Shown piece by piece: positions 10,130-48,085 of a DNA stretch of 48,085 nt. The DNA is from Gemmatimonadota bacterium (GTDB taxonomy: Bacteria > Latescibacterota > UBA2968 > UBA8231), in the NCBI GenBank assembly GCA_038153405.1, contig JAYOYH010000035.1:1-48085 (forward strand), in the 5' to 3' direction. Below the pieces are notes generated by a model, which searched no databases, had not been told where the DNA came from, and was given only the letters and a program-made list of their open reading frames with translations. Numbering within the stretch: the stretch's first letter is position 1; each line of letters starts with the position of its first letter. A program made the translations under genes and the position numbers.

Positions 10130-11977
10130 GTGTATATACGGCGGAACATAGGTCGCGCCATCCCGGCGCTGGCCGCCTTACTGCTGCTGGCCGCGTGCAG
10201 CGACGAGGGCCGTCGGCTGATCGATACGACCTCTTCACCGGATGCAGTAGATCATTCTATCTTTGCCGATGCGGGACTAGAGAGAGCCGTGCGCTCGGCT
10301 TTGCAAATGCCTCGGGGCCCGATCGACCGAACGACGTTAGAGAATATTGAAGCGCTAGATGGCAGCCGTCGCGGCATTGCGAGCCTGCAGGGAATCGAAC
10401 AGCTGCGCGGTCTGAGACAGCTGCGCCTGGCGCACAACGAGATCCGCGACCCGACGCCGCTGAGTGCGCTCGATTCACTCACCGTACTCGACCTGTCCAA
10501 CAACGCACTCTTCAGCGCGGTAGCGCTTGCACAGCTCGTCCAACTAACGCACCTAAACCTCGACTTTAATCGCATTGCCTCGGTCGCGCCGCTAGCCCAG
10601 CTAGCCCTCCTAGAACTGCTCAACCTCAATGCCAATCGCGTCGCCGACATCGCCGCGCTGGCCAGACTACAGCGCCTGAAAACTGTCGAACTATCGGGTA
10701 ACCCGCTCAGCGCAGAGGCAATTGCTACCGACTTGCCGGCCCTAGTGCGGCGCGGCGTACAGGTCCACTTCTACCGCAGCGAAGGCGTCTTGCTAATACC
10801 CGACTTGCAGTTGGAAGCGCTGCTGCGACGCGTTACTAACAAGAATCTCGGCAACCTTACCCAAGACGACCTGAACCGCGTCGTGCGACTGACCATAGAG
10901 GGCAGCGATCGCATCAGCGATTTGCGCGGCATTGAAAGTCTAGTCAACCTGACTACGCTGCACATCAGCGACACGCGCGTGCCCAATGCCTTTCCCCTTG
11001 CTGGGCTGAATAAGCTGCGCACGCTTGAAATAAACAATACGCGTATTGAAGACGTGTCCTTTGTCACCGAATTGGTCGAACTGCGCACGCTCGCGCTAAA
11101 CAATACCGGCGTGGAAGACGTCGCGCCGCTGGCCAATCTGACCCAGCTGCAAACCCTCTCGCTCATCGGCAATAAAATCGGCGACCTGCAGCCGTTGGCC
11201 GGGCTGACGCGGCTGCTACGCCTCGAACTAACGCGCAACCGCATTCGCTCCATTCGCCCGCTGAGCGACCTGACCCGCCTGAACATTCTCAATGCCGCCG
11301 ACAACTCCATTGATGATCTATCTCCACTCAGTGGCCTTACGTCGCTCGATGCACTCGACCTCACGGCCAATTTCGTCGAAGACGTCTCTCCACTCAGTCC
11401 CCTAGATCGCTCGCTCAACCAGCTGATCTTGGCGGAGAACCGCATCGTCGACATACGGGGTATAGCGGCACTAAGCCGCATAATCCGACTGGACCTTTCC
11501 AACAACGCGCTCGTCGACATCGGCACGCTGAGTCGCCTGACGCGCCTGCGCGAACTCGACCTATCCGGTAACCGCATTGAGCGCATTGAAGCGCTGGCCC
11601 AACTGCCCCTGCGCGTGCTCGACCTGGCCAATAACCAGCTTGTCAACATCGCGCCGTTGGCCGAACTAAACCTGCTCACGTCCCTCTTTATTTTTAACAA
11701 TATGGTGAGCGATATTGCGCCGCTGGCCAATCTGCGGGGGCTCGAAATACTCGACCTATCGGTTAATCGCGTAAGCGACCTAACGCCCCTGGCCAACCTG
11801 GTTCAACTGCGCCGACTCAGCGCCATTGCCAACCGCATCGAGCAACTGACGCCGCTGCTCGAATTGGAAGACCTGCAGTTTGTCGCGCTTATCGGCAACC
11901 GCCTAAACGCACATGCCCTAAGCGTAGAAGTGGCGCAACTGCGCGCGCGCGGCGTGGAAGTCGTGCTCGGCGAATGA
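10130..11977 (+). CDS. Cassette 1 gene D: internalin-like leucine-rich repeat lipoprotein
   Basis: GTG start, lipobox LLAAC. Many 22-aa repeats of LxxLxLxxNxIxDIxPLxxL. Two helical caps (FADAGLERAVRSAL and IPDLQLEALLRR). Confidence 0.88.
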   Translation: MYIRRNIGRAIPALAALLLLAACSDEGRRLIDTTSSPDAVDHSIFADAGLERAVRSALQMPRGPIDRTTLENIEALDGSRRGIASLQGIEQLRGLRQLRLAHNEIRDPTPLSALDSLTVLDLSNNALFSAVALAQLVQLTHLNLDFNRIASVAPLAQLALLELLNLNANRVADIAALARLQRLKTVELSGNPLSAEAIATDLPALVRRGVQVHFYRSEGVLLIPDLQLEALLRRVTNKNLGNLTQDDLNRVVRLTIEGSDRISDLRGIESLVNLTTLHISDTRVPNAFPLAGLNKLRTLEINNTRIEDVSFVTELVELRTLALNNTGVEDVAPLANLTQLQTLSLIGNKIGDLQPLAGLTRLLRLELTRNRIRSIRPLSDLTRLNILNAADNSIDDLSPLSGLTSLDALDLTANFVEDVSPLSPLDRSLNQLILAENRIVDIRGIAALSRIIRLDLSNNALVDIGTLSRLTRLRELDLSGNRIERIEALAQLPLRVLDLANNQLVNIAPLAELNLLTSLFIFNNMVSDIAPLANLRGLEILDLSVNRVSDLTPLANLVQLRRLSAIANRIEQLTPLLELEDLQFVALIGNRLNAHALSVEVAQLRARGVEVVLGE

Positions 11978-27723: not shown

Positions 27724-27724
27724 T

Positions 27725-32147: not shown

Positions 32148-32178
32148 ATAATGGGTTCAAAAGGCTTCTACCTGTCAA
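32148..32178 (-). promoter_or_regulatory. Weak candidate promoter for nrfHA
   Basis: Perfect TTGACA (32178-32173) and CATTAT (32153-32148), but the spacer is an atypical 19 nt. Confidence 0.2.
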
Positions 32179-32321
32179 CTGATTTTTTGTCCGCCTCCAT
32201 TCGCTCTGTGGCGCGCTGGATTGAATGCCGCGCTCTTGGGTATATTGTTGGCGACCAAACGCCGTGCACCTATTTAGCGGACCCACGCCGAACGCGCCCC
32301 TAAAAACAACGGAGTCAAAGC

Positions 32322-33143
32322 ATGCCAATAACCGACGCCCTTCCCGATATGCAGCGCGAACTGAGGTTTTTTCCCTGCGCGAACAGAGCGCCTAAAAAAC
32401 TGACGCTGGAACAGATAGAGCAGTATAACAAAAAGGGCTATATATGCCCCTTAGACGTTTTTTCTCCCGCCGAAGCGGCGGCCAACCGAACCTATTTTAA
32501 CGCGTTGATGGACAGGGCCAAAGAGGCCGGGCACTCCAGTTACTCAATCAACGGCTGGCATCGCCACTGCCGCGGCATATACGACTTGCTGCACGACAAG
32601 CGCATTCTCGACTACGCCGAAGACCTGCTGGGGCCCAATTTGGTCAGCATTATGACCCACTACTTCAGCAAAGAGCCAGGCGATGGCAAACAGGTCAGTT
32701 GGCACCAGGACGCCTCCTACTGGCCGCTGACGCCGAGCAAAGTCGTCACCGCCTGGCTGGCTATCGACGACGTAGACGGAGATAACGGCCCGATGACGGT
32801 GATTCCGGGATCGCATCTGCACGGACAGATTCCCTTCGAGCGCAGCACAGCCGAGGAAAACAACGTGCTCGGACAGAGCGTGCACGATCCGCTCCAGTGG
32901 GGCGATGCCCCCGTGCCCTTTGTTATGAAGGCCGGACAAATCTCCATACATACGGACATGCTGCTGCACGGCTCAGAGCCCAACCGCTCCGCGCGTCGGC
33001 GCTGCGGCCTAACGCTGCGCTACATGCCACCCGATGTGCGCACGCGCGAAATCGAGCACGCACACGGCTACATATGCCGCGGCGAAGACGAAAGTGGCTA
33101 TTGGTTGAGTTGGTCGGTGCCCGCAGGTGACGCGGTGCCCTGA
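32322..33143 (+). CDS. Phytanoyl-CoA dioxygenase (PhyH) family Fe(II)/2-oxoglutarate dioxygenase
   Basis: GGAG SD. WHQDASYW (HxD), VTAWLAIDD..NGPMTVIPGSH, LLHGSEPNRS..R. Confidence 0.92.
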   Translation: MPITDALPDMQRELRFFPCANRAPKKLTLEQIEQYNKKGYICPLDVFSPAEAAANRTYFNALMDRAKEAGHSSYSINGWHRHCRGIYDLLHDKRILDYAEDLLGPNLVSIMTHYFSKEPGDGKQVSWHQDASYWPLTPSKVVTAWLAIDDVDGDNGPMTVIPGSHLHGQIPFERSTAEENNVLGQSVHDPLQWGDAPVPFVMKAGQISIHTDMLLHGSEPNRSARRRCGLTLRYMPPDVRTREIEHAHGYICRGEDESGYWLSWSVPAGDAVP

Positions 33144-33166
33144 GGAAGGAGAAGGGGAAAGCCCGT

Positions 33167-35035
33167 TTAATAGGCGACGTTGACGATGCCTTGCCGGTAG
33201 AACATGCCGGCATCGGCGTCTACTTCAATCTGGTAGAGATACACCCCCTGCGGCACGGTCCGACCATAGCGATCGCGTCCGTCCCAAATGCGGGCAAAGC
33301 GGCCGCTCTGGTCGGAGCCAGCAAAACCGCGCTGCACGCGCTTACCGGCTAGGTCGAATATCTCAAACAGCACCGGCGTTGGCTGGTTTAAACGCAGCAG
33401 GTTGTAGGATACGAGCAGATAATCGTTGACGCCGTCGGCGTTGGGCGTAAACGCCCGCGTAGAGGTGCGGATATCGTCGACCAGGGGATCGTTGCGCGAA
33501 GAGAGGCGCACGGCCAACGTGGCGCCGGGCGTGCGTGGATCGACGTCGCCAGGCTGGGCGAATTGGTAAACGATCTCGCGCGCTTCGGGCGTGGCGCGCT
33601 CGTCGAGCGCCTGTACGCGAAAGGCCGTACCGTCTGAGAATACGCGCGCCCGAAAGAATACTTCGATAAAGCTCGCCTTGGAATCGATCCGTTCCCACAA
33701 ATTGATTGAAAAGCCGTCGCCGGGGTTGATGCGCGAAGTAAAGAGGGCGTCGCGGTCTTTGACCAACACGCGGTCGATAGCGACGATCTCGGCCGCCGTC
33801 TGCACCTCCATCTGGCGAAAGCCCGACGTCGGCACATTAGAATCTTCCAACTGCTGGACCTGCAGCGCCAGCGCAAACTCCGTCTCCTGCCCGGCGTCGA
33901 CAATCGTCGGACTGATCTCGGCCTCCATCACCTGCGCTAGCGGCCAGCTGGTGTATTCGAAGTGCATCGTTTCAATCTTGAAACCGGGCTCATTCCACTG
34001 CAGGCGAAACTGAATATACTCCTTGGGGGAAGGAGAGATAATCAGTCCGTCCGTAACCGCTTCCCAGGCGCTCCATTCGGGGTTCGGCAGGATCGGTCCG
34101 CGCTCGGCTTCACCGCGCTCGACGTCGCTCAGGTTGACGATATTCTCCCAGCCCTTTCTACCCACCTCGCGCAGCGTCTGCGACTTGGTCAGACGCAAGA
34201 AGTACTGCACGGGTTTGGCGTCCGGACCGGTGCGCGTCTGCACGGTGACGGGCAGTTCGTCGGGATCGCGCCCGTTGATGCGCAAACGCCCCCATACCGG
34301 AAAGCCGCCGGGCACGGTGAGCGGTCGCGAAATAAACTCCACCGGCGCCACGCTGCCGTTGGCTATTATTTCGATTTCGGCAATTTCCCACGGCCGCTCG
34401 TTAAGGGTGACTACGCGCACGTGGCGCATCTCCTTATCATCGCGCGGTTGGTTGGGCAGCGGCCAAATGGCAATGCTCTGCGTATTGGGGGAGTTGACGT
34501 TGGCATTGATGAGAAATGGATTGCCAAAGGGCTCGGTGGCAATGGCGTCGGGCGATGACAGCACCGCCGGATCCCTGCTGTCGGAGCCGAGGGCAAAAGC
34601 CTGCACGTAGAGGTCGCGGTGATCGGAGTCAAGGCGCGGAAAAAAGCGAATCTGCTGCACGCCAAAGTGTCCGCCCAAATCAATGTAGAGCGAGGATTGG
34701 CGCGCTATGCCTATCTCGTCGGGGTTAAAAGCCGTATTATCGTCGCCGTCAATGGCCTTGGCCATGGCCGCGCTCGAGGCAAAATCGAGCGTTGGCGTAC
34801 CAAAGGTGGTCGTGCCTTCAACGGTGGCAAAGACGCGACCGCCGCGCGCGAGTGCACGCGGTGCCAAATTGTCGCCGGCCCGCACGTCCCACGTCCAGAT
34901 CGAGTCGCGCTCAACGCTCATCTTGGTCGACTCTTCGATCACGGCCGTCCACGGCAAGCCACCCGGACCGATCACCATTTCTTCGACGGCCCATCCCCGT
35001 GCAAATAGAAGCGCGACAAGCAGCAGCGTTTTCAT
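33167..35035 (-). CDS. Cassette 2 gene E': secreted discoidin-like protein with C-terminal FlgD-Ig / T9SS type-B-like domain
   Basis: Signal peptide. IDGDDNTAF..YIDLG..IRFFPRLDS, QTRTGPD..WSAW, TPNADGVND..WDGRD..PQGVY..NVAY. ATGA overlap with the upstream LRR gene. Confidence 0.8.
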   Translation of the reverse strand: MKTLLLVALLFARGWAVEEMVIGPGGLPWTAVIEESTKMSVERDSIWTWDVRAGDNLAPRALARGGRVFATVEGTTTFGTPTLDFASSAAMAKAIDGDDNTAFNPDEIGIARQSSLYIDLGGHFGVQQIRFFPRLDSDHRDLYVQAFALGSDSRDPAVLSSPDAIATEPFGNPFLINANVNSPNTQSIAIWPLPNQPRDDKEMRHVRVVTLNERPWEIAEIEIIANGSVAPVEFISRPLTVPGGFPVWGRLRINGRDPDELPVTVQTRTGPDAKPVQYFLRLTKSQTLREVGRKGWENIVNLSDVERGEAERGPILPNPEWSAWEAVTDGLIISPSPKEYIQFRLQWNEPGFKIETMHFEYTSWPLAQVMEAEISPTIVDAGQETEFALALQVQQLEDSNVPTSGFRQMEVQTAAEIVAIDRVLVKDRDALFTSRINPGDGFSINLWERIDSKASFIEVFFRARVFSDGTAFRVQALDERATPEAREIVYQFAQPGDVDPRTPGATLAVRLSSRNDPLVDDIRTSTRAFTPNADGVNDYLLVSYNLLRLNQPTPVLFEIFDLAGKRVQRGFAGSDQSGRFARIWDGRDRYGRTVPQGVYLYQIEVDADAGMFYRQGIVNVAY

Positions 35036-36324
35036 CGGCCAATCACAAAAGCGCCGCGATCGCGCAGAATCGGAATGACATTTTCGCGCGAATCGGATGA
35101 GAGGTTGTTCCCGCGCACCCAGATGCTTTTGAGGCCGTCCATATCCAACAGCGGCGAGAGGTCAGAGACTTCATTGTCCGTCAGGTTGAGCGTGGCCAGT
35201 TGGTCGAGGTCTCGCAGCGGCGAGAGATCCGTTACGCTGTTTTGCGCCAGGTTGAGGAACTTTAAGCGCGTCAGGTTCGACAGGCTGCTAACGTCCGAAG
35301 TGCCGGTGTTGGGCAGGTTGAGTTCCTCGAGCAGAATCAATCCTGCCAGCGGCAACAAGCTTTCGACCGGCGTGTCGCGCACGGTGAGAACCTTGAGTTT
35401 TATCAGGGAAGCCAGCGGCGTCAAATCGCTAAAACCCTGTATGTCCTCCGATGCAGAAAAGCGGATAAAGAGCGTTTCTACGTTGACCAGACGGTTCATG
35501 CCGCTGAGCGTTTGGATCGCCCCCGTAGTATTGAGGAAGAGTAGATCTTCCAATAGATCGTCGGTAACCGGTCCTTTTAGACCGCCCAGATGCGCTCGAA
35601 TATCTTCTTCGAGAGCCGCATCAAATGGGCTTTCGAAAGGCTGGTAGTAGTGTACGTCGACGCCGCGCCGAACCAGTGGATCAATCGCGGCCACGTCGGC
35701 GAGGGGATTGCCCGAAAGCTCCAAATCCGTCAGCAGCCGCAGTCCCAGTAGAGGGGTTATATCGCGGATCTGATTGTTGTCGAGGTTGATCAGGCGCAGC
35801 CGGCGCAAATCGGCCAGCGGCGCAATATCGACGATCTCGTTGTTTTGCAGATCGAGATGGGACAGCTGTTGCAGGGTGCGCAGACCCGCAATATCGACAA
35901 TCTCGTTGTTGGACAGATTGAGCGCGGTCAGGCGCTGCAGCGAGGAGAGCGGCGCCAAATCGCTCACGCTGTTATCGGATAGGTCAAGCGTTTGCACGTC
36001 GACTAGCGACGACAGGGGAGTTAGATCGCCCAGTGCATTGGCTCCCAGATCGATCGTACGCAGTCCCGTCAGGCGTTCGATGCCGTAGAGGGAGGTGATG
36101 CCGCACTGGGCGGCAGGCAGCGCATCAATCCCACCCAGTTGCTCAGCACCGAGTGCGCCGCGTGGCTGGTCAAGCGCTTCGCGCACGACGCGCTCCAAGG
36201 CCACGTCGGCAAATTCCGTGTGATCGAACACCTCGGACGGATTGACCGCCAGCGGCGGCGTTGGCGCGTCCTGACAGGCTAAGGTGAGTAATGCTGCAAG
36301 CGCGAGTACGATATTGATCATCAT
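35032..36324 (-). CDS. Cassette 2 gene D': internalin-like LRR lipoprotein
   Basis: Lipobox LTLAC. Cap DHTEFADVALERVVREAL. 22-aa LRRs in two blocks. Ends IPILRDRGAFV. Confidence 0.88.
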   Translation of the reverse strand: MMINIVLALAALLTLACQDAPTPPLAVNPSEVFDHTEFADVALERVVREALDQPRGALGAEQLGGIDALPAAQCGITSLYGIERLTGLRTIDLGANALGDLTPLSSLVDVQTLDLSDNSVSDLAPLSSLQRLTALNLSNNEIVDIAGLRTLQQLSHLDLQNNEIVDIAPLADLRRLRLINLDNNQIRDITPLLGLRLLTDLELSGNPLADVAAIDPLVRRGVDVHYYQPFESPFDAALEEDIRAHLGGLKGPVTDDLLEDLLFLNTTGAIQTLSGMNRLVNVETLFIRFSASEDIQGFSDLTPLASLIKLKVLTVRDTPVESLLPLAGLILLEELNLPNTGTSDVSSLSNLTRLKFLNLAQNSVTDLSPLRDLDQLATLNLTDNEVSDLSPLLDMDGLKSIWVRGNNLSSDSRENVIPILRDRGAFVIGR

Positions 36325-36347
36325 GGCAACTATTGAGTAGATGAGTA

Positions 36348-36375
36348 AAGATAGGGCCTAGTTAGCGCGCGTCAA
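36348..36375 (-). promoter_or_regulatory. Candidate internal sigma70-type promoter for the extra LRR + CTD gene pair
   Basis: TTGACG (36375-36370), 16 nt spacer, TATCTT (36353-36348), in a 57-nt gap, the widest inside either cassette. Confidence 0.45.
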
Positions 36376-36381
36376 AGGTCC

Positions 36382-38217
36382 TCAATAAACGACGTTTACT
36401 AGCCCGTAGCGGGCCGTTTTTTTTGCGTCGGCATCGATCTGCAGCTGGTAGAAGTAGGTGCCCGGAGCTACCCGCGCTCCTGAGGCATCGCGGCCGTCCC
36501 ATAGGCGCATATACGAACCACTTGGATCCTCGGACGCATAGCCTCGGCGCAGCAGGCGTCCGCTCAGGTCGTAAATGCCAAACGCAATGTCGGCCGGCTG
36601 TGTCAAGCGCAGCACGTTGTAGGTAAGCACCAGATAATCGTTGCTGCCGTCGCCGTTGGGCGTAAAGAGCGCGCTGCGCAGGCGGGGATCGTCCAATAGC
36701 TTCTCGCGGTGCGAAGCCAAGCGCACGCGCAACGTGCCGCCCGGCGTGCGCGGGTCTACGTCGGCGGCCATCGCCGATTGGTAAGCGTCTTCATCGCCCG
36801 TTCCCGTAGGGCGGCGATCGCGCGCACGCACGCGAAAGTCCGTTCCGTCGACGAATACACGCGCGCGAAAAAATATCTGCACAAACGACCCTTGTGGGTT
36901 GATGCGCTCGGCAAAGCGCAGCGAAAAACCGCCGTTCACCAAGCGCTCGGCGCTGTAGAACGCCGGACGATCCTGCACATAGACGCTGTCGATGGCAACG
37001 ATCTCGGCGCGCGTTTGCACTTCGATATAGCGAAATCCCGAATCGACGCCGCCCGTATCTTCGATGCGGCGCGCGCGCAGGTCGATGGCAAAGGGCGTCT
37101 CCTGACCGGGATAGACCGCGACCGGATTGATTTCGGCCGACAGCTCCTGGGCCAGCGGACGGCTGGTGTATTCGATGGCGACTTGTTCGATGCGCGTGCC
37201 GGGCTGCAGGACCTGAACGCGAAACTGAATAACGGCCTGCGGCGGCGACGATATCTGTCCGTCGTTGAGTGATTCCCATGCACTCCACAGCGGATTTTCG
37301 CGCGGTGGCGCCTGAATGCCGGGAATGGCAGTGGTCCAATCACTCTTGCTCACTAGTACCAGATCGGCTCCGCGTTCGAGAAAGTACTGCACCGGCGCCA
37401 AGTCGGGCCCGCTGCGCGTCTGCACGATAATCGGCAGTTCGTCAGGCGGTAGGCCGTTTACCGACAGGCGCCCCCATACCGGTTGCGCATTGCGCACTTC
37501 CAGAGGCACCGATAGATACTCGCCGGGCGGGGCCGAACCGTCGGCGATAATCTCGATCTCCGCCACTTCCCAGTCGCGCTCGCTGAGCGTGCGCAGCCGC
37601 ACGTGACGCATCGGCCTCGGGTCATTCGGCTCGTTGGGATGCGGCCAGAGCACGATACTCTGGTCATTCGGCGCATTGATATGCGCGTTGATCAGCGTAG
37701 GGCTACCGCAGCACACGTCAAATATATCGGTGGCAATTTCCGCCGGGTCGAGCGCATCGGAACCGAGTTGAAACGCCTGCAAATAGCGGTTGCGATGGCC
37801 GGAATCAAGGCGAGGAAAAAAGCGAATTTGCTCCACGCCGTAATGGGCCCCTAGGTCGATATAGACATCCATCTGGCGCTGGGCGCCGTCCGCTTCCGGA
37901 TCAAATGCGGTGCCGGCATCGCCGTCGATCATACGCCCGATGCTCGGCGTGCGCAGTAGGGCCGGATAGAGGCCGCCCACTGCGTCGGCTTTTTCAGCAA
38001 TGGCAAAGATGCGACCTCCGCGCTCTAGGATGCTTGGCGCGATATTTTCACCGCGCACAGCCTGCCAGATCCACAGGGAATCATCGGCTACAGAAAGGCG
38101 GTTGGATTCCTCGCGCACCTGCGCAAAAGAGAGCCCGGCGCGGCCAATAACCAGCGATTCAACGGCCAAGAGCACAGTCGGCGCCAAGAGCGCACAGCAC
38201 AGGACGAGCGATCTCAT
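36382..38217 (-). CDS. Cassette 2 gene E: secreted discoidin-like protein with C-terminal FlgD-Ig / T9SS type-B-like domain
   Basis: Signal peptide. IDGDAGTAF..YIDLG..IRFFPRLDS, QTRSGPD..WSAW, TPNGDGSND..WDGRD..PGTY..NVVY. ATGA overlap. Confidence 0.8.
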   Translation of the reverse strand: MRSLVLCCALLAPTVLLAVESLVIGRAGLSFAQVREESNRLSVADDSLWIWQAVRGENIAPSILERGGRIFAIAEKADAVGGLYPALLRTPSIGRMIDGDAGTAFDPEADGAQRQMDVYIDLGAHYGVEQIRFFPRLDSGHRNRYLQAFQLGSDALDPAEIATDIFDVCCGSPTLINAHINAPNDQSIVLWPHPNEPNDPRPMRHVRLRTLSERDWEVAEIEIIADGSAPPGEYLSVPLEVRNAQPVWGRLSVNGLPPDELPIIVQTRSGPDLAPVQYFLERGADLVLVSKSDWTTAIPGIQAPPRENPLWSAWESLNDGQISSPPQAVIQFRVQVLQPGTRIEQVAIEYTSRPLAQELSAEINPVAVYPGQETPFAIDLRARRIEDTGGVDSGFRYIEVQTRAEIVAIDSVYVQDRPAFYSAERLVNGGFSLRFAERINPQGSFVQIFFRARVFVDGTDFRVRARDRRPTGTGDEDAYQSAMAADVDPRTPGGTLRVRLASHREKLLDDPRLRSALFTPNGDGSNDYLVLTYNVLRLTQPADIAFGIYDLSGRLLRRGYASEDPSGSYMRLWDGRDASGARVAPGTYFYQLQIDADAKKTARYGLVNVVY

Positions 38218-39629
38218 CGTATGCCGATAACGGAAATGCCGCGCGCGCGCAGCGCCGGAATATGCTCTTCAATAGATGCTCTGCTCAGCGGATTATTCCC
38301 CAGTGAAACAATCTTCAAGTTTTCCAGCGCCAACAGCGGCGCTACGTCGACAATGCGATTAGAGGCCATGCGCACGTCTTCGAGCGAAACCATACGCGCC
38401 AGCGGCGCGATATCGACAATGGCGTTGGACGCAATGTTGAGATGGGTAATGCCGCGCAGCGAGGTCAGCGCCGAGATATCTTCGATGTCGTTGCTGGCCA
38501 AGTCGAGCTTTTGTAGGCGCAGCAGGCGGCGCACCTGGTGAATCTCGCGTATCTGGTTGCCGGTCAGGATGAGTTCGCGCAGCTCGAGCTGATTGCCCAA
38601 CCCGTTGAGCGTGGTCAGCCGACCTATGCTGACGCGCAGCGACGCAAGGCGGCGCAATTCACGCAGAGGGCGCAGATCGATAATCGGCGTGCTGATAATA
38701 TTGAGCGAACGCAAATTTTCCAGTTCGGCCAGCGGCCCCAAATCGTTGAGCAGAGCGCGGCTACCGCGAATGGATAGCGCCTCTAGGTTTTGCAGATGCT
38801 CGATGCCGCCGAGCGTTTCGATCGCACCGGTGACAACCAGTTCGCGCACGCGCAGAAAGTCGTCCTCCTCCAGAGGACCCACCGGTTTGTCGAGCGCCGT
38901 GCGGATGCTCGTCTCGACGTGCTCGCTGCTGATGGTCAATGCCTCGGCGTAGTACGTCACTTCGACGCCGCGCTGGCGCAGCGCGCTCAGCGTCGAGCGC
39001 TCCAGTGGGTTACCCGACAGTTCGACGCGGCGCAGCAGCGGCAGGCCGGTCAGCGGCGCGATATCGCGCACCAAATTGTTGTCGAAGTTGAGCTGGCGCA
39101 GGCGGCGCAGGCCGCGCAGCGGCGCCAAATCGGATACGGCGTTGTCGTCAAAGTCCAGCGCTTCCAAGCTGGTCAACGCGGCCAGCGGTGCCAAGTCGGT
39201 CACGGCATTGTCGGCCAGCACCAGCACGCGCAGGGCGCGCAGCGGAGCGAGATATTCGAGTGAATCGAGGCGATTGTGCGCTAAGTCGAGCGTGTCGAGC
39301 GCGGCTAGGGCGGCGAGCGGTGCCAGCGCACCGCTGCCCAAGGCATTGCCGGCCAGGTGCAGGCGACGCAGGTTCGACAGGCGCTCGATTCCTTCGAGAC
39401 GAGCGATACCTCGCTGCGACAGGTCGAGTCGGTAGATTGACTGTAGGTCGGCCTCGGCTAGCGCGCTGCGCTCCTGCGATAGCACCTGGCGCACCGCGCG
39501 CTCGAGCGCCTCGTCGGCAAACGCGGTGTGATCAAAGAGCACGCTGTCATCCGGACCGGGCTGCAGCGGTACGTCGCGCGCGCTGCAGGCGGTCAAGGCA
39601 AGAGCGTATAGAAGTAGACATTTCTTCAT
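38214..39629 (-). CDS. Cassette 2 gene D: internalin-like LRR lipoprotein
   Basis: Lipobox ALTAC. Cap DHTAFADEALERAVRQVL. Two LRR blocks, closed by RQRGVEV and RARGISV. Confidence 0.88.
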   Translation of the reverse strand: MKKCLLLYALALTACSARDVPLQPGPDDSVLFDHTAFADEALERAVRQVLSQERSALAEADLQSIYRLDLSQRGIARLEGIERLSNLRRLHLAGNALGSGALAPLAALAALDTLDLAHNRLDSLEYLAPLRALRVLVLADNAVTDLAPLAALTSLEALDFDDNAVSDLAPLRGLRRLRQLNFDNNLVRDIAPLTGLPLLRRVELSGNPLERSTLSALRQRGVEVTYYAEALTISSEHVETSIRTALDKPVGPLEEDDFLRVRELVVTGAIETLGGIEHLQNLEALSIRGSRALLNDLGPLAELENLRSLNIISTPIIDLRPLRELRRLASLRVSIGRLTTLNGLGNQLELRELILTGNQIREIHQVRRLLRLQKLDLASNDIEDISALTSLRGITHLNIASNAIVDIAPLARMVSLEDVRMASNRIVDVAPLLALENLKIVSLGNNPLSRASIEEHIPALRARGISVIGIR

Positions 39630-39643
39630 GCGCGCCCGCCGCG

Positions 39644-42385
39644 CTAGCGTTCGACTCCGGCGTAGACCGTAATAAAGCCACGCGTCGAAGTGCGTGGCCC
39701 TTCGACCTCGAAGTCCTGGCGGCTGATGGAAAAGCCGAGCACGGTCGTCAGCCGATAGCCCTGGTAGTCCGACACATCGGTCATTTGCAGCAGCGCCGTC
39801 AGCTCGGTAAAGCTATCGTCGGCGCGCGGCGGCGTCGGATCCTGCAGCTGGAAGAATTGATGGTACTCGAGACCGGCCTCCAGATAGGTGGTGTACATCA
39901 CGGGAAGGCGGCCGATGACCATGCCAATTTCGCTCAGTTCGCGCCGCGTTGCCTCCGTCGCGTTAAATGATGAATAGCGCAGAAACTCGCTCTTCCACGC
40001 CGGGATCAGCGAAAAGGGACCAGCACTTATGCGATACTCGGCCTTGTTGACCACGCCGAGAAAAGAAGTCTGATCGCTCATGTCGCGCAGGTCGAGTTCC
40101 TTGGCGCCATCGAGCTGGTGGTAGAGCTGCCAGCGCAGCATATTTTTCATTTTGAGACCGGGCATCGGTTCAAAATCTATGCCGAGCCACGAAGTATTTA
40201 CCAGCGTATTGCGCGCCGGCAGCGGGTCGCGCACCGGGCGCAGTTCGCCGCGCGAGTTGGGCGGCTGCACCCACTGGATCAGATCGTCGCGAATCGTGTC
40301 TTTGACTTTGCGCGCGTCTTGAAAAACGCGCAGACGGCCCCAAGAAAAGGCGTGGGCGCCGTTGAGCATAAAGTAGGTCGCCAAGTTGCGCCGCTTATCG
40401 GATATCTGCGCGATGCGCTGCTGGCCAACGGTCGTGCGCCAGTTGGGATGCACATAGCGCCCCAGATAGATATTGTACCCCTCCTGGTCGCGCCGATAGG
40501 GTAGGTCGGCCAGCTCGTCGTTTTCAAAGCGATCAATGGTGCCGTTGTGGTTCATATCGACGCCGTAGAGAAACTCTGGACGCTCGATGTGAAACCGCAG
40601 AAAGGGCTCTTCGTAGTCGGGTATGCGGTTGGGGCTATCGTTGTTGTCGTTCTGGTTAAAATCCGAAATAAAGTCATTGTTTTCGTCCCAGCCGGGAAAG
40701 ATGCTAATATCGCCGCTGGTAAAGCCGCGCCGCCGCCAGTCGGGATCGCGGTCCTGGTCGTCGTTGTCATCGACGTACTCGTAGAGCTTGAGATCGTCGG
40801 CGTAGTCGACAATACCCGTCTCCTGCACCGTGCGAAACGAGGTGGCATAGTTGGGGTCGGTATGAAAAAATTCACCGTAGACAAAGTAGGGATGCGTCAC
40901 GCGCGAGACGTTGGCCATCCACGCCAGCGCTTTGCGGCCGCTGGCGTGGTGCTCTTCGAGATTGGGATTGGGGAACTTGCTCCACCGGTTGTTTACGTTT
41001 ATTTCGAAATAACCGTCGAGACCTTCCAAATCGGTGAGTTCTACGGTAAAGCCGGCGATCTGGTTGGCCGTCGGCAAGCCATAATCAAAGACCAACACGC
41101 GCTGGTTAGAAGAGTCTCTGACGTTGCCGCGAGCGTTGGCTACCGGCACAAAAACCTGGCGTAGAAAGATATCCGTCTGCAGGTCTGAACTTACTTCGAT
41201 TGCATAGTCGTTGGCCACGACCAACTCCAGCTGAATGCGTGCAATTTCCGCCGGGTCGGGCCCCGAATAGGTGCGGTCGAGCAGATCGTAGCGCAAGAGA
41301 ATTTCTTCACTGCCGTCAGCGGCCAAAAATCCCTTGCGCTGGAACCCCCCTTCAATGACGGCGCGGTAACCTATTTCCGAACCGCGCGTCTGGTTGCCCT
41401 CTAAATCCCACAGCAGGATATCGGAATCAAAAAGCGCGCCGCCGCCCACTCCGTCCTCCGGCGAGTCGTCCCTGATTTTGATTTCTATAAAGCTGAGATT
41501 TTCCAAGTTTTGCGAACCCGTCAGGCTGCCTTTGAAAAAGTTGCCGGATAGGGCATCGTTTTGCGTCTGCGAATGATGCGAGTTGATAAAGGTGCCACCC
41601 ACTTTGACGAAGTCACCGACCTGTAGCTCGACGCGCCCGCCGACCAAGTTGGTATTATCCGTGCGCGCCGCGGCCGTAATCTGGCCGGGGCTAGTCTGTG
41701 CGCCATCCGGCTCGCTAATGCGCGAGAGCAGCATAGTGCCCATATACTTGTCGGAGGCAAAGTCGAGCTGGATGCCATTAAAACGCGGCTTGGAAAAGGT
41801 CATCGGCGTCAGCGTCGTGCGAATTTGATTGCCCACCGTTATCGCGTAGTGGTACTGTCCTTTGTGATCGGAGGCAATGACGACATTGTTAAACCACGAA
41901 CCAAAGCGACCGTCTTTAAACAGCGTCGAGCCAAAGGGCTGCGGGTTTTCTTGGCGCCAGTCGAAAATGAGCCAACCGCGGTTGAGAAAGTTGCCGAACA
42001 AATCGTAGAAGTAGAATCCCTCGATAGAGGTAGACACATAGCGCTGATAGGTCTCGCGCGCGTAGTTGGAATACTCCCACTGTTTCCAACCGTACTCGGC
42101 GTAGAGTTCCTGCGGTATAAACCACTTGCGCACCGTCGGGTCGAGGGCGTCAAAAAGGACGCCGGGGCCGGTGGGATCAAACGAGACTTTGCCACCGCGT
42201 TTGACAGTGCCCAGGCGCGAACCGTAGGTCTGCGCATCGACGCCGACCGCCAGCGCGAGGAACGCAGCCATCACGAACCAACGCGTCGCCCAGCCAATCC
42301 AAACTGCTCGCACGGGTGGTACGCTGTGCCTTCGACGCGCTCTGCGCGTGGAGACCACCGCCGCAATATTCAACTTTTGTATCAT
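39644..42385 (-). CDS. Cassette 2 gene B2: large uncharacterised secreted protein, putative outer-membrane beta-barrel
   Basis: 913-aa ORF; the start is uncertain and may be up to ~110 nt downstream. VDA-QTYGSRLGTVKRGGKVSF. Colinear with 7474-10128 over the full length. Ends ITVYAGVER. Confidence 0.75.
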   Translation of the reverse strand: MIQKLNIAAVVSTRRARRRHSVPPVRAVWIGWATRWFVMAAFLALAVGVDAQTYGSRLGTVKRGGKVSFDPTGPGVLFDALDPTVRKWFIPQELYAEYGWKQWEYSNYARETYQRYVSTSIEGFYFYDLFGNFLNRGWLIFDWRQENPQPFGSTLFKDGRFGSWFNNVVIASDHKGQYHYAITVGNQIRTTLTPMTFSKPRFNGIQLDFASDKYMGTMLLSRISEPDGAQTSPGQITAAARTDNTNLVGGRVELQVGDFVKVGGTFINSHHSQTQNDALSGNFFKGSLTGSQNLENLSFIEIKIRDDSPEDGVGGGALFDSDILLWDLEGNQTRGSEIGYRAVIEGGFQRKGFLAADGSEEILLRYDLLDRTYSGPDPAEIARIQLELVVANDYAIEVSSDLQTDIFLRQVFVPVANARGNVRDSSNQRVLVFDYGLPTANQIAGFTVELTDLEGLDGYFEINVNNRWSKFPNPNLEEHHASGRKALAWMANVSRVTHPYFVYGEFFHTDPNYATSFRTVQETGIVDYADDLKLYEYVDDNDDQDRDPDWRRRGFTSGDISIFPGWDENNDFISDFNQNDNNDSPNRIPDYEEPFLRFHIERPEFLYGVDMNHNGTIDRFENDELADLPYRRDQEGYNIYLGRYVHPNWRTTVGQQRIAQISDKRRNLATYFMLNGAHAFSWGRLRVFQDARKVKDTIRDDLIQWVQPPNSRGELRPVRDPLPARNTLVNTSWLGIDFEPMPGLKMKNMLRWQLYHQLDGAKELDLRDMSDQTSFLGVVNKAEYRISAGPFSLIPAWKSEFLRYSSFNATEATRRELSEIGMVIGRLPVMYTTYLEAGLEYHQFFQLQDPTPPRADDSFTELTALLQMTDVSDYQGYRLTTVLGFSISRQDFEVEGPRTSTRGFITVYAGVER

Positions 42386-42427
42386 TCTCCTACCTTGTCG
42401 AAAAGGGCACCCAAACCACAGGCCGCG

Positions 42428-44353
42428 CTAGTATGCTACGGCGATGCTGCCCGAGTGCACTTCTTCAAACGCATCCGACTCGACGCGCAGCACCCATACA
42501 TAAGTGCCCGGCAACAGTAGATCACCGTCGCCCGTTCGCCCATCCCAAGTGAATTCAACGGGCCCAATGCCGAGTTCAGCGGAAAAAGCAGTACGCACGC
42601 GCCGCCCCGCCAAATCGTAGACTTCAAAGACTACCGGAGCGGGCTCCGTTATTTGCAACACGTTGAAAAACACGTCCAGCTGATCGTTGACGCCATCGCC
42701 GTTGGGGGTCAATAAACGCGTATTCGCAACGATCTCGCCGACGAGCTTGCCGATTTGTGGCTTGGGAATGGAGACGGCCAATCCCGACAGCGCATCGTCA
42801 TCTCCGGGGCCAAAGTTGACGGCATTGCCGCTGACAACAGCCTGCGGCACACCCGCGGCCGCGCTGTTAAAAGCGCGACTGCTAAACGTCGTGCCAAAGC
42901 GAAAAATCGGCAGGTCAAAGGTCAGCTCGAGCAGCGCCTGATCCTGCGTTACTAAGGGAAAGGAAATGCCGAAACTATCCTCGTTGGCAAAGTCGATAGC
43001 GTATTCAATTGGCTCGCCATTGATCTTCACTTCGCGCACGTCGGTCGTGGCCACGTTGGTATCCACTACGAGGCGATCGAAACCGTAGATCGGCAGCAGG
43101 TTGCCCTCCTCGTCGCCGGCGCGCTCCAGGCGCAGAGCATAGCGAAACGTGGCCGGCTCCTCGGCCTGCGTCAGACGCGGAAACACTTCGCCAACGATGC
43201 GATCGGCCAGCGGAGGACTGAGGTAGTCAAATTCGAATTGGTCTAATTCGCGCGTGCGAAACAACTCGCCGGCAAACTCGAACTGGAACTGCACGTAGCG
43301 ACGCGGCGACGGCGCGGTAATCAATTCGCCGCTGGCAACCGGTCTCCAAGTGCTCCAGTTGACGTCGTCTTCGCTAATTGGCCCGCGATCGAGCGGATCG
43401 AGCGCAAAAAAAGCATCCGGGCCAATATCGACTAACACGCGCGTCGGATTACCTCCCGCATCCGTGCCGCGCTCGACCCGGTTGTAGCGCAGTGGCGTAG
43501 GATCGGTTCCCGTGCGCACGCGCGCGCTGAGAGAGGAAAACTCCGCCTCGCCGACGGCATCTTCCAGCCAACGCACCGGGCCAACGGTGGCGCGCTGTCC
43601 AAGGTCAATGATGTCGGTAAGATAGGTGGCTCGCTGCAAATAACCCGTGCCGTAGACTTCGATTTCATCGATCTCAAACGGCACGTTGGCCAACGACTTG
43701 AGCCGCAGCACGCGCACGTACTGGGGCGGCACGGCGATATCGACGATGGGCTCTTCGTTTTCCACGTTGCGCTCGACGAGTATATCGGGCGATGCCAAGC
43801 TAGGGCGCTCGGGATTTATCCATAGCTCAAAGGCGCGTAGAAAATCGTTTTGGTAGGGGTGAGTTGGCGTCGGCACAACGGTGTTGCGCGGATAAAAGCG
43901 CACGCGCTGCACGCCGATGGCCGTGCCGAAGTCGAGAATGACGCGGACGTTGCGCGCGTTGACTTCTGGCTCAAACGCCGTCGGTTTGCGCGTAAAAGCT
44001 ACCGTTGGGCTGCCGTTTACCGTGCCGCGCAACTCGGCTTCAAAACCGCGCCCCACGTCGGGGGACGTAATCGAAGCTCCGGGCAGTAACACGCGCGCGG
44101 CGACGTTTTCTCCCTCTTCGAAAAAGAGCGGACTGATCCAACCTGGGCGCCGATCGAACTCAATCGAATCGTCCGGCGAGTTGGTCGTATCGATCGATGC
44201 GCCGCTGCGCACCTTGGGATCGATGCCGCTACCGCCGGTGCGCCAGGGCGTGGAAGGCGAACCAATGATAAACGTGCGCGCGCGCTGCGCGTCAACGCCG
44301 CCCGCAACAAGCAGCAGAGCAACCAGAGCGCATATTTCGCACAATCGCCGCAT
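42428..44353 (-). CDS. Cassette 2 gene C: secreted discoidin-like protein with C-terminal FlgD-Ig / T9SS type-B-like domain
   Basis: ATG 44353 in a TGATG overlap. RPGWISPLFFE, RVRFYPRNT, EIDEIEVYGTGY, FDLPIFRFGTTFS and TPNGDGVND..AVAY, all shared with 5543-7450. Confidence 0.8.
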   Translation of the reverse strand: MRRLCEICALVALLLVAGGVDAQRARTFIIGSPSTPWRTGGSGIDPKVRSGASIDTTNSPDDSIEFDRRPGWISPLFFEEGENVAARVLLPGASITSPDVGRGFEAELRGTVNGSPTVAFTRKPTAFEPEVNARNVRVILDFGTAIGVQRVRFYPRNTVVPTPTHPYQNDFLRAFELWINPERPSLASPDILVERNVENEEPIVDIAVPPQYVRVLRLKSLANVPFEIDEIEVYGTGYLQRATYLTDIIDLGQRATVGPVRWLEDAVGEAEFSSLSARVRTGTDPTPLRYNRVERGTDAGGNPTRVLVDIGPDAFFALDPLDRGPISEDDVNWSTWRPVASGELITAPSPRRYVQFQFEFAGELFRTRELDQFEFDYLSPPLADRIVGEVFPRLTQAEEPATFRYALRLERAGDEEGNLLPIYGFDRLVVDTNVATTDVREVKINGEPIEYAIDFANEDSFGISFPLVTQDQALLELTFDLPIFRFGTTFSSRAFNSAAAGVPQAVVSGNAVNFGPGDDDALSGLAVSIPKPQIGKLVGEIVANTRLLTPNGDGVNDQLDVFFNVLQITEPAPVVFEVYDLAGRRVRTAFSAELGIGPVEFTWDGRTGDGDLLLPGTYVWVLRVESDAFEEVHSGSIAVAY

Positions 44354-47043
44354 CACTCACCCAACCCCGCGTTAATGGACAGAAAGAGCATGCTGGCGCG
44401 CTCGGTCGGACGCTGGGCAAAATTCTGCCGCTCGACCTGCACGCCGAGGCGCGTGACGAGCTGGTACCCCTGATAGGCTACGCGGTTGGTCAGCTGAGTG
44501 AGCAGAGTCCAAGAGCGAAAATCCTCGGCAATCTCCTCGCGCGCCCCGTCGAGCATCCAAAACCAGGAGCACTCCAAGCCGATCTGCAGTTGGCTATCAA
44601 AGAGCTGCCGGCCGTAGCGCGGGAAGTAGGACACGCCCGCCGACTCGGCAAAGAGCGGCTGGGTCCACAGCAAGAACAGCGTCTCCTCGAGGCTTTCAGC
44701 CCGATCCAAGCGCGTCGTGAACGGGCGGTCGCGGCGGTACTCGCTCTTCCAACGCGGCTCGAACACGGCCAGACCGACAGGCATGCTCCATTCGATCTTG
44801 CTGATGGAACCCAAAAAACCGCTGCGCTGGCGAGCCGGAAAGCCGAAGAGATCGGTCGTCTCGCTGGCGCGCTGGTGCACTTCCTCCCACTTAACTCGGT
44901 GCAGCAAGCGTATATCGGGGCCCATGCGCTGGTCTAGGTCGGCGTAGAACGTGCCTTTCCAAGCGTCTTTAAAAGGAAGCTGATCGAGCGTCTCCCGCAT
45001 GCGGCCAGGTGATCCCATCGGCTGAAACCACATCCATAAATCATCGGATATATTGTCTCTGACCGAAGCGCCGTGGGCGAATACCCGCAGCCCGCTGCCG
45101 CCCTTGAAGCGATAGCGCCACCCCAGCAGCCCGTACCACGACTGCGTGCGGCCGTCGCCGGAAATCAGACGCATATCCTGACGCCCGAGCGTGAGCGAAA
45201 AGCCGGGGCCGATATTGGCTTTGGCATGCGCGTTAAAGCCGCGGTGATCGCCCTTGTAGGGATAGTCGGGCAGATCGTCGTTTTCAAAGCGATCAATCGT
45301 GCCGTTGTAGTTCATATCCAGGCCAAAGAGAAATTCTGGGCGGTCGGAGCGGAAGCGCAGAAACGGCTCTTCGTAGTCGGGAAAGGAATTGCTATTTTGG
45401 TTGTGGTCGTTGATGAAGTCGCCGTTTTCATCGAATCCCGGCCAAGCGATATCGTTCCAGCTGCGCGAGCGCACGATATTGCCCGCGCTGCGCTCCAAGT
45501 CGGGCCGCTGCCACTCGGGCAGCGCGTTGTAGTCGTCGTCGTCGTCGACGAATTCCATAATTTGCGGAATGGGGTCCTTGTAGCGAATGCGTCCTTCCTT
45601 ATCGACGAGCCAGTAGTTAGTAGTGTACTCGTCCTCGATGCGGAACCCCTCGAAAAAGAGCGCCCATGGATAGGCGTTCCAATCGGCCTGCACGTAGGAT
45701 GCCGTGCCGCTCAAATCGTGCCGATAGTGCGTTTTTTCCACCGAATTGGGGTAGGAAAAAAAACGCCGATTGAGCACGGCCTCGCCGCGCATCGACAGGC
45801 CGTGCCAATTGCTCAGCTCCCAGTTGGTGCCGAGCAGCTCGTTGGCCGTCGGCAAGCCGTAGTCGACTTCGATAAATCCGGTATTGCTGTTGTCCTGCAC
45901 GTTGCCGCGCGCGCGCCGCACGGGCAGAAAGATAATCTCCGGATTAAAGCGCTCGCCGTCCGTCTGCAGGTTAGATGCCACTTCGATTCGGTAATCATTG
46001 GCGACGGACAGTTCAAACGTGGCGCGCGTAATATCGGCTGAGGTAATATCCTCATAGCGAAAGCGCGCCAAATCGTACTCGAGCACGATATTTTCTGCAT
46101 CGCGTGCGACCAGGCGTCCACCTTCATTGCCCCCGCCCGAAATTTTGGGCAGCAGCCCAACTTCGCGCCCGCGATAGACGTTGCCCTCGCGGTCCTCGAT
46201 GACAATTTCGTAATCGGCCAACACGGCCGCCGCATCGCCCTGTCCCGGCGAGTCGTCGCGCACCCGCACCCATAGCTTATCGAGCGTGCGGTTTTGCTGC
46301 GTCGAGAGCGTGCCGCGCAGCGGGTTGCCCTCGTTGACTTCGAGTTCGGTCTGGGCGTTATGGGCGTTGACGTAGCTAAAGCCCAGCGTGCTGAAGCCCC
46401 CTAGCTGAATCTCGGCGTGGGCGGCCAACATCTGCGTCACGTCGGTGCGGTCTTCGCCGTCGGGCGCCGAAGGGCGCGAAGCCAGCAGCGTCGCCATCAG
46501 CACGTCGTTGGCATAGTCCATCCGCACGCCGTTAAAACGCGGCTTGTACAGCGTGAGCGGGGTGAAAAACGTGTAGATCTGATCGCCGATCATCAGGCGG
46601 TAGTTGCCGCCGTCGCGGCGATCGCCGGCCACGACCATGCGGCCGAAAAAACGCTGATAGGCGTTGCCGCCGGTGTCTTTATCGATGCGGCTGCCGCGCG
46701 GCAGCGGCTGTTCCTGGCTCCAATTGTAGACCAGCCAACCGCGCCCTAAATGCGTGCCAAAGGTATCGTAAAAATCCGCGCCCTCGAGCAGGTTGTTGAC
46801 GTAGCGCTCGTAGGGTTGCACGGCATAGCGCGTATCGGCCGCGTACCAGGGCTGCATATAGGTCTCGGGTAAGTGGCGCAGTCCGTACCACTTGTGCAGC
46901 GCGGGGCGGGCGTAGTCGATTTCAAAGCGATTGCCGTAGGGATTGACCGTGGCCAGACCCCAGTTCTGCGGATCTTCTAAGCGGCCCTGGGCCAATGCAT
47001 AGACGGGCAATAAGAGCAGGAGAAGGGCGGGCGCGCTACGCAT
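44353..47043 (-). CDS. Cassette 2 gene B1: large uncharacterised secreted protein, putative outer-membrane beta-barrel
   Basis: ATG 47043 in a TGATG overlap. Signal peptide ALA-Q. Shares LHxWY..RHLxETY.QPWYA and LLWTQPL..GVSYFPRYGRQ with 2802-5543. Confidence 0.75.
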   Translation of the reverse strand: MRSAPALLLLLLPVYALAQGRLEDPQNWGLATVNPYGNRFEIDYARPALHKWYGLRHLPETYMQPWYAADTRYAVQPYERYVNNLLEGADFYDTFGTHLGRGWLVYNWSQEQPLPRGSRIDKDTGGNAYQRFFGRMVVAGDRRDGGNYRLMIGDQIYTFFTPLTLYKPRFNGVRMDYANDVLMATLLASRPSAPDGEDRTDVTQMLAAHAEIQLGGFSTLGFSYVNAHNAQTELEVNEGNPLRGTLSTQQNRTLDKLWVRVRDDSPGQGDAAAVLADYEIVIEDREGNVYRGREVGLLPKISGGGNEGGRLVARDAENIVLEYDLARFRYEDITSADITRATFELSVANDYRIEVASNLQTDGERFNPEIIFLPVRRARGNVQDNSNTGFIEVDYGLPTANELLGTNWELSNWHGLSMRGEAVLNRRFFSYPNSVEKTHYRHDLSGTASYVQADWNAYPWALFFEGFRIEDEYTTNYWLVDKEGRIRYKDPIPQIMEFVDDDDDYNALPEWQRPDLERSAGNIVRSRSWNDIAWPGFDENGDFINDHNQNSNSFPDYEEPFLRFRSDRPEFLFGLDMNYNGTIDRFENDDLPDYPYKGDHRGFNAHAKANIGPGFSLTLGRQDMRLISGDGRTQSWYGLLGWRYRFKGGSGLRVFAHGASVRDNISDDLWMWFQPMGSPGRMRETLDQLPFKDAWKGTFYADLDQRMGPDIRLLHRVKWEEVHQRASETTDLFGFPARQRSGFLGSISKIEWSMPVGLAVFEPRWKSEYRRDRPFTTRLDRAESLEETLFLLWTQPLFAESAGVSYFPRYGRQLFDSQLQIGLECSWFWMLDGAREEIAEDFRSWTLLTQLTNRVAYQGYQLVTRLGVQVERQNFAQRPTERASMLFLSINAGLGE

Positions 47044-48083
47044 CAATACACCAAGTGCAGCAGACGGGCAGTAGCCGTGCCGTCGGCGCCGCTATCCGTT
47101 GCCAGATGAATGCGCAGCACGTACAGACCCGGCGCCATGATGTGACCGCCGTCGTCGCGGCCATCCCAAGAAAATACGTGCTCGCCGCTGGGAAAGGAGC
47201 GCAGCACGCTCAGGTCGCGCACGCGTTGGCCAGCCAAGTTCAGCACTTCGACGCCGAGCTTCTTCTCTCGCTCCAAGTGGTACACCGTAATGCGAATATC
47301 GACTTGGTCGTTGATGCCGTCGCCGTTGGGCGTAATCACGCCCGGTTCGACCTGCACATCTTCGAGCAGCGAACTATTCTGCAGGCGGGACGTGACCGAC
47401 AGGCTCTGCGTAGCCACGACTTGCGTGGCGTCGCCGCCAACTACGTCTTGCACTAACCCCGGCCGCGCGGCGTTTTCCAGCTGCGCGCTAAAGACCGTGC
47501 TCTGCAGAAAAACGCGCGTGCGAAAGCGAAAGGCGTATACCTGATTGCCGCGCGCTACCGGCGCGGGAAAACGCACGACGACGGAGCCTTCGTCGCCGCG
47601 CGAAACCTCGAGCGCCCCATCGGGCCATAGGCGCGTACCCGCGCCAAAGCGCAGACTGCTGTCGCTGCCTACCAGCACCTCGCTCAGTTCAAGCGGCTGC
47701 GAAGACGTAGAGCGCAGGACAATCTGATCAAACCCCGGGTTGTCGGGTCCAAAGACCGGGCGCACGTAGAGAGTAAACGTCTCTTCAACCCCCGGCTCGA
47801 CGCCGCCGATGGGAAAGATTTCGCCAAAGACGGTGTCTACCAGCGGCGGCACAAAGTGCAAGCGCAGCGAGCGCAGCCAGGCGCGCTGCAGCGGTTCGCG
47901 CGATAGCAGGCGCACCTGCACTTTAACCAGCGGGCGCGGTGCCGGCGATTTAAAAGAATCGCCGGACTCCGTATACGGCGGACTCCAATTGCTCCAATCC
48001 GGACCCGTTATTTCCTCGAAGACGGGCGGTGGACGCGGCGTCTGCTCCGTATCGGGCAGGCGGCGCCACAGATCTTCGGAAAT
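47043..48083 (-). CDS. Cassette 2 gene A (partial, 5' end outside the window): secreted protein with C-terminal FlgD-Ig / T9SS type-B-like domain
   Basis: The frame stays open to the window edge (ISEDLWRR..GPDWSNWSPPY..FKSPAPRP). It aligns with the second half of 301-2802 (FTLYVRP..NPGFD, TPNGDGIND, HLVY). Confidence 0.8.
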   Translation of the reverse strand: MSEDLWRRLPDTEQTPRPPPVFEEITGPDWSNWSPPYTESGDSFKSPAPRPLVKVQVRLLSREPLQRAWLRSLRLHFVPPLVDTVFGEIFPIGGVEPGVEETFTLYVRPVFGPDNPGFDQIVLRSTSSQPLELSEVLVGSDSSLRFGAGTRLWPDGALEVSRGDEGSVVVRFPAPVARGNQVYAFRFRTRVFLQSTVFSAQLENAARPGLVQDVVGGDATQVVATQSLSVTSRLQNSSLLEDVQVEPGVITPNGDGINDQVDIRITVYHLEREKKLGVEVLNLAGQRVRDLSVLRSFPSGEHVFSWDGRDDGGHIMAPGLYVLRIHLATDSGADGTATARLLHLVY

Positions 48084-48085
48084 TT

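Follow-up and report, generated by a model that had tools for sequence, protein, structure and literature searches.

The DNA analysed here, 48,085 nucleotides that we call the window, is the entire contig C35 of a 4.86-Mb genome (93% complete) from the Latescibacterota, and it carries two copies of a gene cassette for predicted cell-envelope proteins. Each copy encodes two predicted outer-membrane barrels (B1 and B2), at least one leucine-rich repeat (LRR) protein (D and, in copy 2, D') and several proteins with a C-terminal tail like that of type IX secretion system (T9SS) cargo (A, C, E and, in copy 2, E'), which we term passengers. Copy 1 lies on the plus strand (301-13812) in the order A-B1-C-B2-D-E, and copy 2 lies on the minus strand (48083-33167) in the order A(partial)-B1-C-B2-D-E-D'-E' (Table 1). 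The two are convergent, and 19,354 bases separate E' of copy 2 from the end of copy 1 at 13812; an initial annotation had proposed this minus-strand order and an inverted second copy about 19 kb away, and the coordinates of the open reading frames (ORFs) agree with it. We conclude that these are real, old and selected paralogous cassettes of an undescribed envelope system. The named homologues of B2 come from Candidatus Latescibacterota/Handelsmanbacteria, and window DNA was found in estuary and seawater metagenome runs.

By BLASTP, positional counterparts in the two copies are 47% (A), 53% (B1), 52% (C), 59% (B2), 40-42% (E) and 37-40% (D) identical, as against 36-38% between B1 and B2 and 25-29% over the best stretches among A, C and E. 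At the DNA level the likeness is patchy, the longest matches reaching 65-68% over ~2 kb, and the long repeats listed in the window are coding homologies. The motifs said to unite counterparts are present: GVSYFPRYGRQ in both B1 proteins, RGGKVSFxPxGPGVLFDALDPT in both B2 proteins, FDLPIFRFGTTFS in both C proteins and RF(Y/F)PRLDS in all three E proteins. The claim that each gene resembles its counterpart more than its neighbours holds for A, B1, C and B2 (47-59%) but fails for E and E' of copy 2, which are 50% identical to each other, above the identity of either to E of copy 1. All frames are intact, as had been reported, except that A of copy 2 is truncated, not broken, by the contig end. 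Its missing N-terminus (~495 residues) lies at the end of contig C77 (C77:15916-17503); that fragment clusters with the copy 2 orthologues in the A tree, and the genes beyond it on C77 correspond to those beyond copy 2 in the congeneric genomes G001 and G002. Past the A fragment, the right end of C77 runs into G and C homopolymers, a low-quality tail, which accounts for the break in the assembly.

Table 1. Cassette genes of the window (alpha, copy 1; beta, copy 2), with the products predicted for them.
Gene	Type	Product	Position	Strand	Structure
A	alpha	833 aa, F5/8 type C domain and tail	301..2802	+	
B1	alpha	914 aa, barrel family	2799..5543	+	
C	alpha	636 aa	5540..7450	+	
B2	alpha	884 aa, barrel family	7474..10128	+	
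D	alpha	615 aa, LRR lipoprotein (LAAC)	10130..11977	+	
E	alpha	612 aa	11974..13812	+	
E'	beta	622 aa, tagged passenger, tandem duplicate of E	33167..35035	-	
D'	beta	430 aa, LRR protein, Cys behind hydrophobic leader, tandem duplicate of D	35032..36324	-	
E	beta	611 aa, tagged passenger	36382..38217	-	
D	beta	471 aa, LRR lipoprotein, LTAC lipobox	38214..39629	-	
B2	beta	913 aa, predicted ~24-strand barrel, two large inserts on long-loop side	39644..42385	-	model
C	beta	642 aa, discoidin/CBM32-like domain, beta-sandwich stalk, T9SS-like C-terminal domain	42428..44356	-	model
B1	beta	897 aa, predicted large outer-membrane barrel, no Pfam/NCBIfam family	44353..47046	-	
A	beta	C-terminal 346 aa, tagged passenger, cut by contig end	47043..48083	-	

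Duplication history and selection

The genome holds four full A-B1-C-B2 cassettes, namely alpha (copy 1) and beta (copy 2) in the window, gamma on contig C12 and delta on contig C10. Profile searches of the genome gave 23 barrel-family genes and 52 passengers (counted where at least 250 profile columns matched), and the genome-wide paralogous repertoire that the initial annotation anticipated is therefore present. In trees of this genome's genes the B1, B2, A, C and E classes are each set apart by a branch with support 100, so that genes sort by position and not by cassette. From 60 fetched stretches and the genome's own copies, 47 cassettes in 28 genomes were kept after those lacking four long-enough genes had been dropped, and their A, B1, C and B2 trees have 34-39 of 44 splits in common; strongly supported conflicts occur in two of the six gene pairs and are confined to one shallow group. 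This congruence bears out the proposal that the whole unit was duplicated long ago. The D and E trees follow the same cassette types, and the types do not swap parts and were duplicated as whole units. The cassette tree, which is unrooted, has two sides, one with E upstream of A (19 rows, delta included) and one with D-E behind B2 (28 rows). D'-E' is a later tandem duplication within beta and is partly seen in another genus. Since alpha occurs across three genera, and each of beta and gamma across two or more, the duplications would be older than the split of those genera, unless cassettes moved between them.

Some cassettes depart from the common layout. In gamma, a Gfo/Idh/MocA oxidoreductase gene (C12:31104-32102) stands between C and B2 in this genome and in G001; an ORF of the same size occupies this place in G002 and G005, and none does in G004 and G006. 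One cassette has a tandem B2 (L041, G119), another has A at its far end on the opposite strand (L057, G142), and in a third ~20 kb is inserted between B1 and C (L030/L054, G017).

The implication that copy 2 derives from copy 1 was not upheld. Trees of A, B1 and B2 put copy 2 together with gamma, while the C tree leaves its placement open, and trees constrained to hold alpha and beta together were rejected in approximately unbiased (AU) tests under LG+G4 (p-AU 1e-47 with 14 rows, 7e-9 with 26 rows; the tested group was chosen after the first trees had been seen). The two copies are distant types that merely lie adjacent. They face each other on one contig, and that contig ends within copy 2, which might be taken to speak for a recent local inverted duplication or for a chimera assembled from two organisms. 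Against both stand the rejected sister relationship, the saturation of synonymous sites between the copies and the identical layout in two congeners, in each of which both copies lie convergently on a single contig (G001:C18 and G002:C10) with most spacer genes shared with the window. In addition, contigs from four read runs cover 30 of 30 bins of window positions 14000-33999 at fairly even depth, although two of the runs gave near-identical rows and count as one, no one contig spans the region and two listed joints have sides of just 21 letters. We consider the chance of either explanation practically negligible, and the fear of a chimeric window unfounded. Recent local duplication taken by itself was rejected, as the copies are neither each other's nearest relatives nor unsaturated at synonymous sites.

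Comparison with orthologues gave ratios of nonsynonymous to synonymous change (dN/dS) of 0.03-0.20 in 32 of 32 comparisons for copy 2 and of 0.06-0.18 in 18 of 18 for copy 1; on these estimates the cassettes are under purifying selection, as the earlier suggestion of selective maintenance had it. Between copy 1 and copy 2 the ratio is 0.24-0.42, a value that is unreadable because synonymous sites are saturated, the proportion of synonymous differences (pS, 0.54-0.66) equalling that between congeners. Among strain differences, 31 of the 34 examined are synonymous (these came from 40 of 143 rows listed). In one run, fifteen strain differences, 14 of them synonymous, cluster at 43838-44023, where C encodes its discoidin region, possibly marking a recombined tract. 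Eight genomes of the genus hold 2-4 cassettes each. Cassette class C was found in 36 of the 62 genomes of the family and not in the other 26, which include single-contig assemblies; the cassette is conserved where present, yet dispensable across the family.

Predicted anatomy and a model for surface display

The structural model of B2 (predicted local distance difference test 88; residues 1-68 at low confidence) is a barrel with 23 long strands by DSSP and shorter N-terminal strands, for which a strand number of 24 is probable. Two inserts lie on its long-loop side, one beta-rich (223-385) and one Asp/Asn-rich and strongly conserved (459-582), and by standard topology this side would be extracellular. 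The N-terminal 116 residues are the best conserved part (0.91 within types, 0.74 between). B1 presumably shares the fold, given its homology to B2 (36%). A PDB sequence search with B2 gave one chance match only, and fold searches with Foldseek and VIA returned generic barrels only, a result by which unlisted families are not excluded; the nearest named Atlas cluster, DUF6029 (0.88-0.89), is a lead only. MtrB, LptD, ushers and Deinococcus SlpA resemble B2 as generic large barrels do (Foldseek E down to 6e-7; VIA Z up to 14.4), whereas TM-scores of at most 0.28 of the query, 4-10% identity and a root-mean-square deviation (rmsd) mostly above 8 make this a likeness of geometry only. SlpA barrels nevertheless rank high in the Foldseek list (E 4e-6 to 2e-5), and of the long VIA alignments theirs has the lowest rmsd (5.0 over 368 residues, Z 9.0); together with the conserved Asp/Asn-rich insert they might suggest a structural coat, that is, a calcium-stabilised SlpA- or S-layer-like surface lattice whose paralogues vary the surface. 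The low TM-scores, the many family genomes in which class C was not found, finished ones included, and the strong purifying selection without part swapping, unlike antigenic-type variation, make such a coat very improbable in our view.

The model of C (predicted local distance difference test 90) places residues 57-217 on CBM32/discoidin modules (Z 15.4, rmsd 2.1) and the tail, residues 512-619, on the PorU C-terminal domain (Z 12.5, rmsd 2.4 over 99 residues). Sugar binding by C is suggested by this fold, which non-lectins such as DOC domains also have. D proteins are LRR lipoproteins, and four of the five such proteins of the genome sit in alpha, beta and gamma. PF13585 scores above cut-off in five of the seven window passengers. 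Judged from their terminal motifs, the tailed proteins of the genome fall into two non-overlapping classes: the 52 family passengers all have Y, H or W as last residue, and 45 of them contain TPNGD, while among 33 other tailed proteins PNPF occurs in 32, a final R or K in 31 and TPNGD in none.

Type IX machinery is encoded elsewhere in the genome. A SprA homologue (PF14349 above cut-off) occupies a 2133-aa frame on C29 (C29:30661-37059), PorV and PorU homologues above cut-off lie side by side on C91, and a SprA homologue of ~2100 aa is present in 139 of 140 genomes of the phylum. GldL (TIGR03513) gave no match in the genome, with its control silent too, and GldM was not searched for; PF11751 (PorP/SprF) likewise had no match genome-wide, again with a silent control. 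This is a type IX core outside the Bacteroidota, perhaps one that works with another motor. In Bacteroidota, according to PMC12618676 and PMC9143113, type B cargo requires a cognate PorP/SprF barrel and may remain bound to it, and the gene for the shuttle barrel usually lies directly downstream of the cargo gene (PMC12618676).

Based on these observations, we propose that the passengers are lectin-fold proteins exported by the type IX route and held on the cell surface by the predicted giant barrels and the LRR lipoprotein of their own cassette, a reading to which we give about an even chance. A, C, E and E' would cross the inner membrane by Sec and the outer membrane through the SprA homologue of the genome, retaining their tails. 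Each would then dock non-covalently on the cognate partner indicated by gene order (A on B1, C on B2, E on D), docking being modelled on that of type B cargo with PorP/SprF, and the cassette types would be retained because their ligands, probably glycans, differ. The added passenger of beta, E', is matched by an added D', which leaves one partner per passenger. Export by SprA with cognate display is favoured because 17 of the 23 barrel genes have a passenger at most 0.9 kb upstream and because passengers and barrels co-occur tightly: of the 140 genomes of the phylum, all 65 with a close barrel (E <= 1e-140) yielded passengers, against one of the 16 that have distant barrels only and none of the 59 that have no barrel, with one query each, few candidates scored per genome and kin that are not independent. 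The same co-occurrence, with the usher- and LptD-like size of the barrels (weak fold matches), could also be read as B1 and B2 being private export pores that translocate the passengers themselves, independent of SprA. We see only a slim chance of this, since the passengers carry a T9SS-like tail, a SprA homologue is present and the structural matches are unspecific.

Several observations weigh against surface display as proposed. Co-occurrence could reflect shared operons alone; there are 52 passengers to 23 barrels, 18 of the passengers lying more than 10 kb from any barrel or on contigs without one. The gene behind one passenger, on C7, encodes a small PorV/UPF0164-like barrel that could serve as anchor instead, and three barrel loci are linked to an ExbB-type motor gene, which an anchor would not need. 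None of the four window barrels has a Pfam or NCBIfam match, and they are about three times the length of PorP/SprF. The type B profile TIGR04131 stays below its cut-off in all seven passengers (13-25 bits, against 35), and in structure the tail matches that of PorU. Rate covariation among A, B1, C and B2 (63 branches, 43 cassettes) gave no preferred A-B1/C-B2 pairing, the bootstrap interval including zero. Type-specific divergence is spread along the entire proteins, and the types differ as much in the tail as in the discoidin domain (0.56 for each). Within B2, divergence between types peaks in short loops of the long side (0.46) and is least in the N-terminal part and the acidic insert, and in C it peaks in a helical protrusion (0.29). 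This pattern fits type-specific contacts on a fixed core and singles out no ligand site.

The main rival is an energised importer, in which B1 and B2 would be gated pores for SusCD-like uptake, the passengers and D would serve as lids or binders, and an ExbB-type motor with a long tetratricopeptide repeat (TPR) protein on the delta side would power all copies in trans. Behind delta in G003 and G007 come genes for a CBM9-like protein, a lipoprotein, a small barrel and a TPR protein of 1079 aa, together with a MotA/TolQ/ExbB gene; the same genes are found on C10/C85 in the present genome, and TPR and ExbB-like genes occur at two further barrel loci. The barrel is big enough for such a role, the well-conserved N-terminal 116 residues of B2 could be a plug, lipoprotein D directly behind B2 takes the place of SusD, and the spacer holds two sugar-type ATP-binding cassette (ABC) transporters, a GHL10 protein and a sulfatase. 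However, the profiles for TonB receptors and plugs (PF00593, PF07715) miss the B proteins, the seven PF00593 matches of the genome falling in other genes, and no SusD (PF07980) was found in this 93% complete genome, with a positive control in B. thetaiotaomicron. Nor do the flanks appear to be constant substrate genes: gamma stands between fumarase and hemA, an EF-G-like GTPase gene precedes alpha, and in G002 the ABC transporter is missing beside alpha. No TPR/ExbB genes neighbour alpha, beta or gamma, and several loci with E first have no TPR/ExbB match within the 20 kb fetched. GH99 or GHL10 adjoins two other loci, and the flanks of gamma and alpha are housekeeping genes. On balance we hold the importer to be a serious but minority possibility. 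It is doubtful that the Latescibacterota evolved their own SusCD-like glycan importers from type IX parts, with two giant barrels, three tail-tagged lectins, an LRR lipoprotein, substrate-specific types and a shared ExbB-type motor, unrelated to TonB-dependent receptors. Display on an anchor and energised import can both hold.

Relation to known systems

In its working, the cassette appears most like the T9SS type B cargo-anchor pairs of Bacteroidota (SprB-SprF and PG1035-PorP-PorE, as described in PMC9143113 and PMC12618676), without membership of PorP/SprF. In both, a tagged cargo gene lies directly upstream of a barrel gene, one genome holds many cognate pairs together with orphan cargo, a CHU_C-like TPNGD tail is separate from the PNPF class, and SprA, PorV and PorU are present. 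In contrast to those pairs, the barrels here are of 880-910 aa without a PorP/SprF match and come with an LRR lipoprotein, two barrel and three cargo classes are fixed per cassette, the tail scores below the TIGR04131 cut-off and ends in Tyr, and the phylum is not Bacteroidota; GldL had no match here, with a silent control.

The initial annotation had likened the cassettes to the many susCD pairs of Bacteroidota. That likeness stands for copy number and falls for the proteins themselves, as profile searches do not place the barrels among the TonB-dependent receptors and gave no SusD. Both systems have a paralogous repertoire of barrel, lipoprotein and surface proteins with a glycan-binding fold, with an ExbB-type motor gene at some loci here. 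Unlike SusC/SusD, the cassette has no match to a TonB-dependent receptor profile and no SusD match, D being an LRR protein, its passengers are tail-tagged and not lipoproteins, and no constant set of CAZymes appears to flank it.

Literature searches found nothing on the cassette, nor on Latescibacter in connection with type IX secretion, with T9SS and SprA, or with FlgD and the outer membrane, most subscription papers and supplements lying outside the search; the available parts of PMC4454575 and PMC7081726 do not mention the cassette. What is new here is the four-type history, the rejection of local duplication, the estimates of selection and the patchy distribution. Duplication alone would be ordinary family expansion; the history adds evidence that these unnamed barrels act together with their tagged partners as a single, fixed machine, with four types separate since before the genera split and no part swapping. 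Type IX secretion has been called exclusive to Bacteroidota (PMC12618676), and the four types offer natural cognate and non-cognate pairs for asking how sorting of a second type IX tail class works beyond that phylum. The cassettes also hint at how an uncultured marine lineage may capture substrates.

Other features of the window

No tRNA and no Rfam match was found in the window, and predicted promoters and terminators at 31500-48085 are near the numbers in shuffled sequence (6 against 5.7, and 23 against 17.8 +/- 4.0). One RNA run gave eight short pieces covering 9 of 30 bins, some within copy 2, which we did not use as evidence as DNA carry-over is possible; a contig of the RNA run also covers the intergenic stretch 29647-29794, which has no Rfam match, and this too may be carry-over. 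Within the spacer, a cytochrome c552 (NrfA-like) and NapC/NirT (NrfH-like) pair at 30198-32116 on the minus strand is likely a recent insertion, as it is not at the same place in G001, G002 and G006. Directly behind copy 1, a sugar-type ABC transporter (13911-17651, plus strand) is present in G001 and not at the same place in G002 and G006. Further on, at 25147-29536 on the plus strand, an 858-aa protein joins a solute-binding domain to an ABC permease, and behind it lies a permease of 603 aa that has a large insert, an arrangement conserved in G001 and G002.

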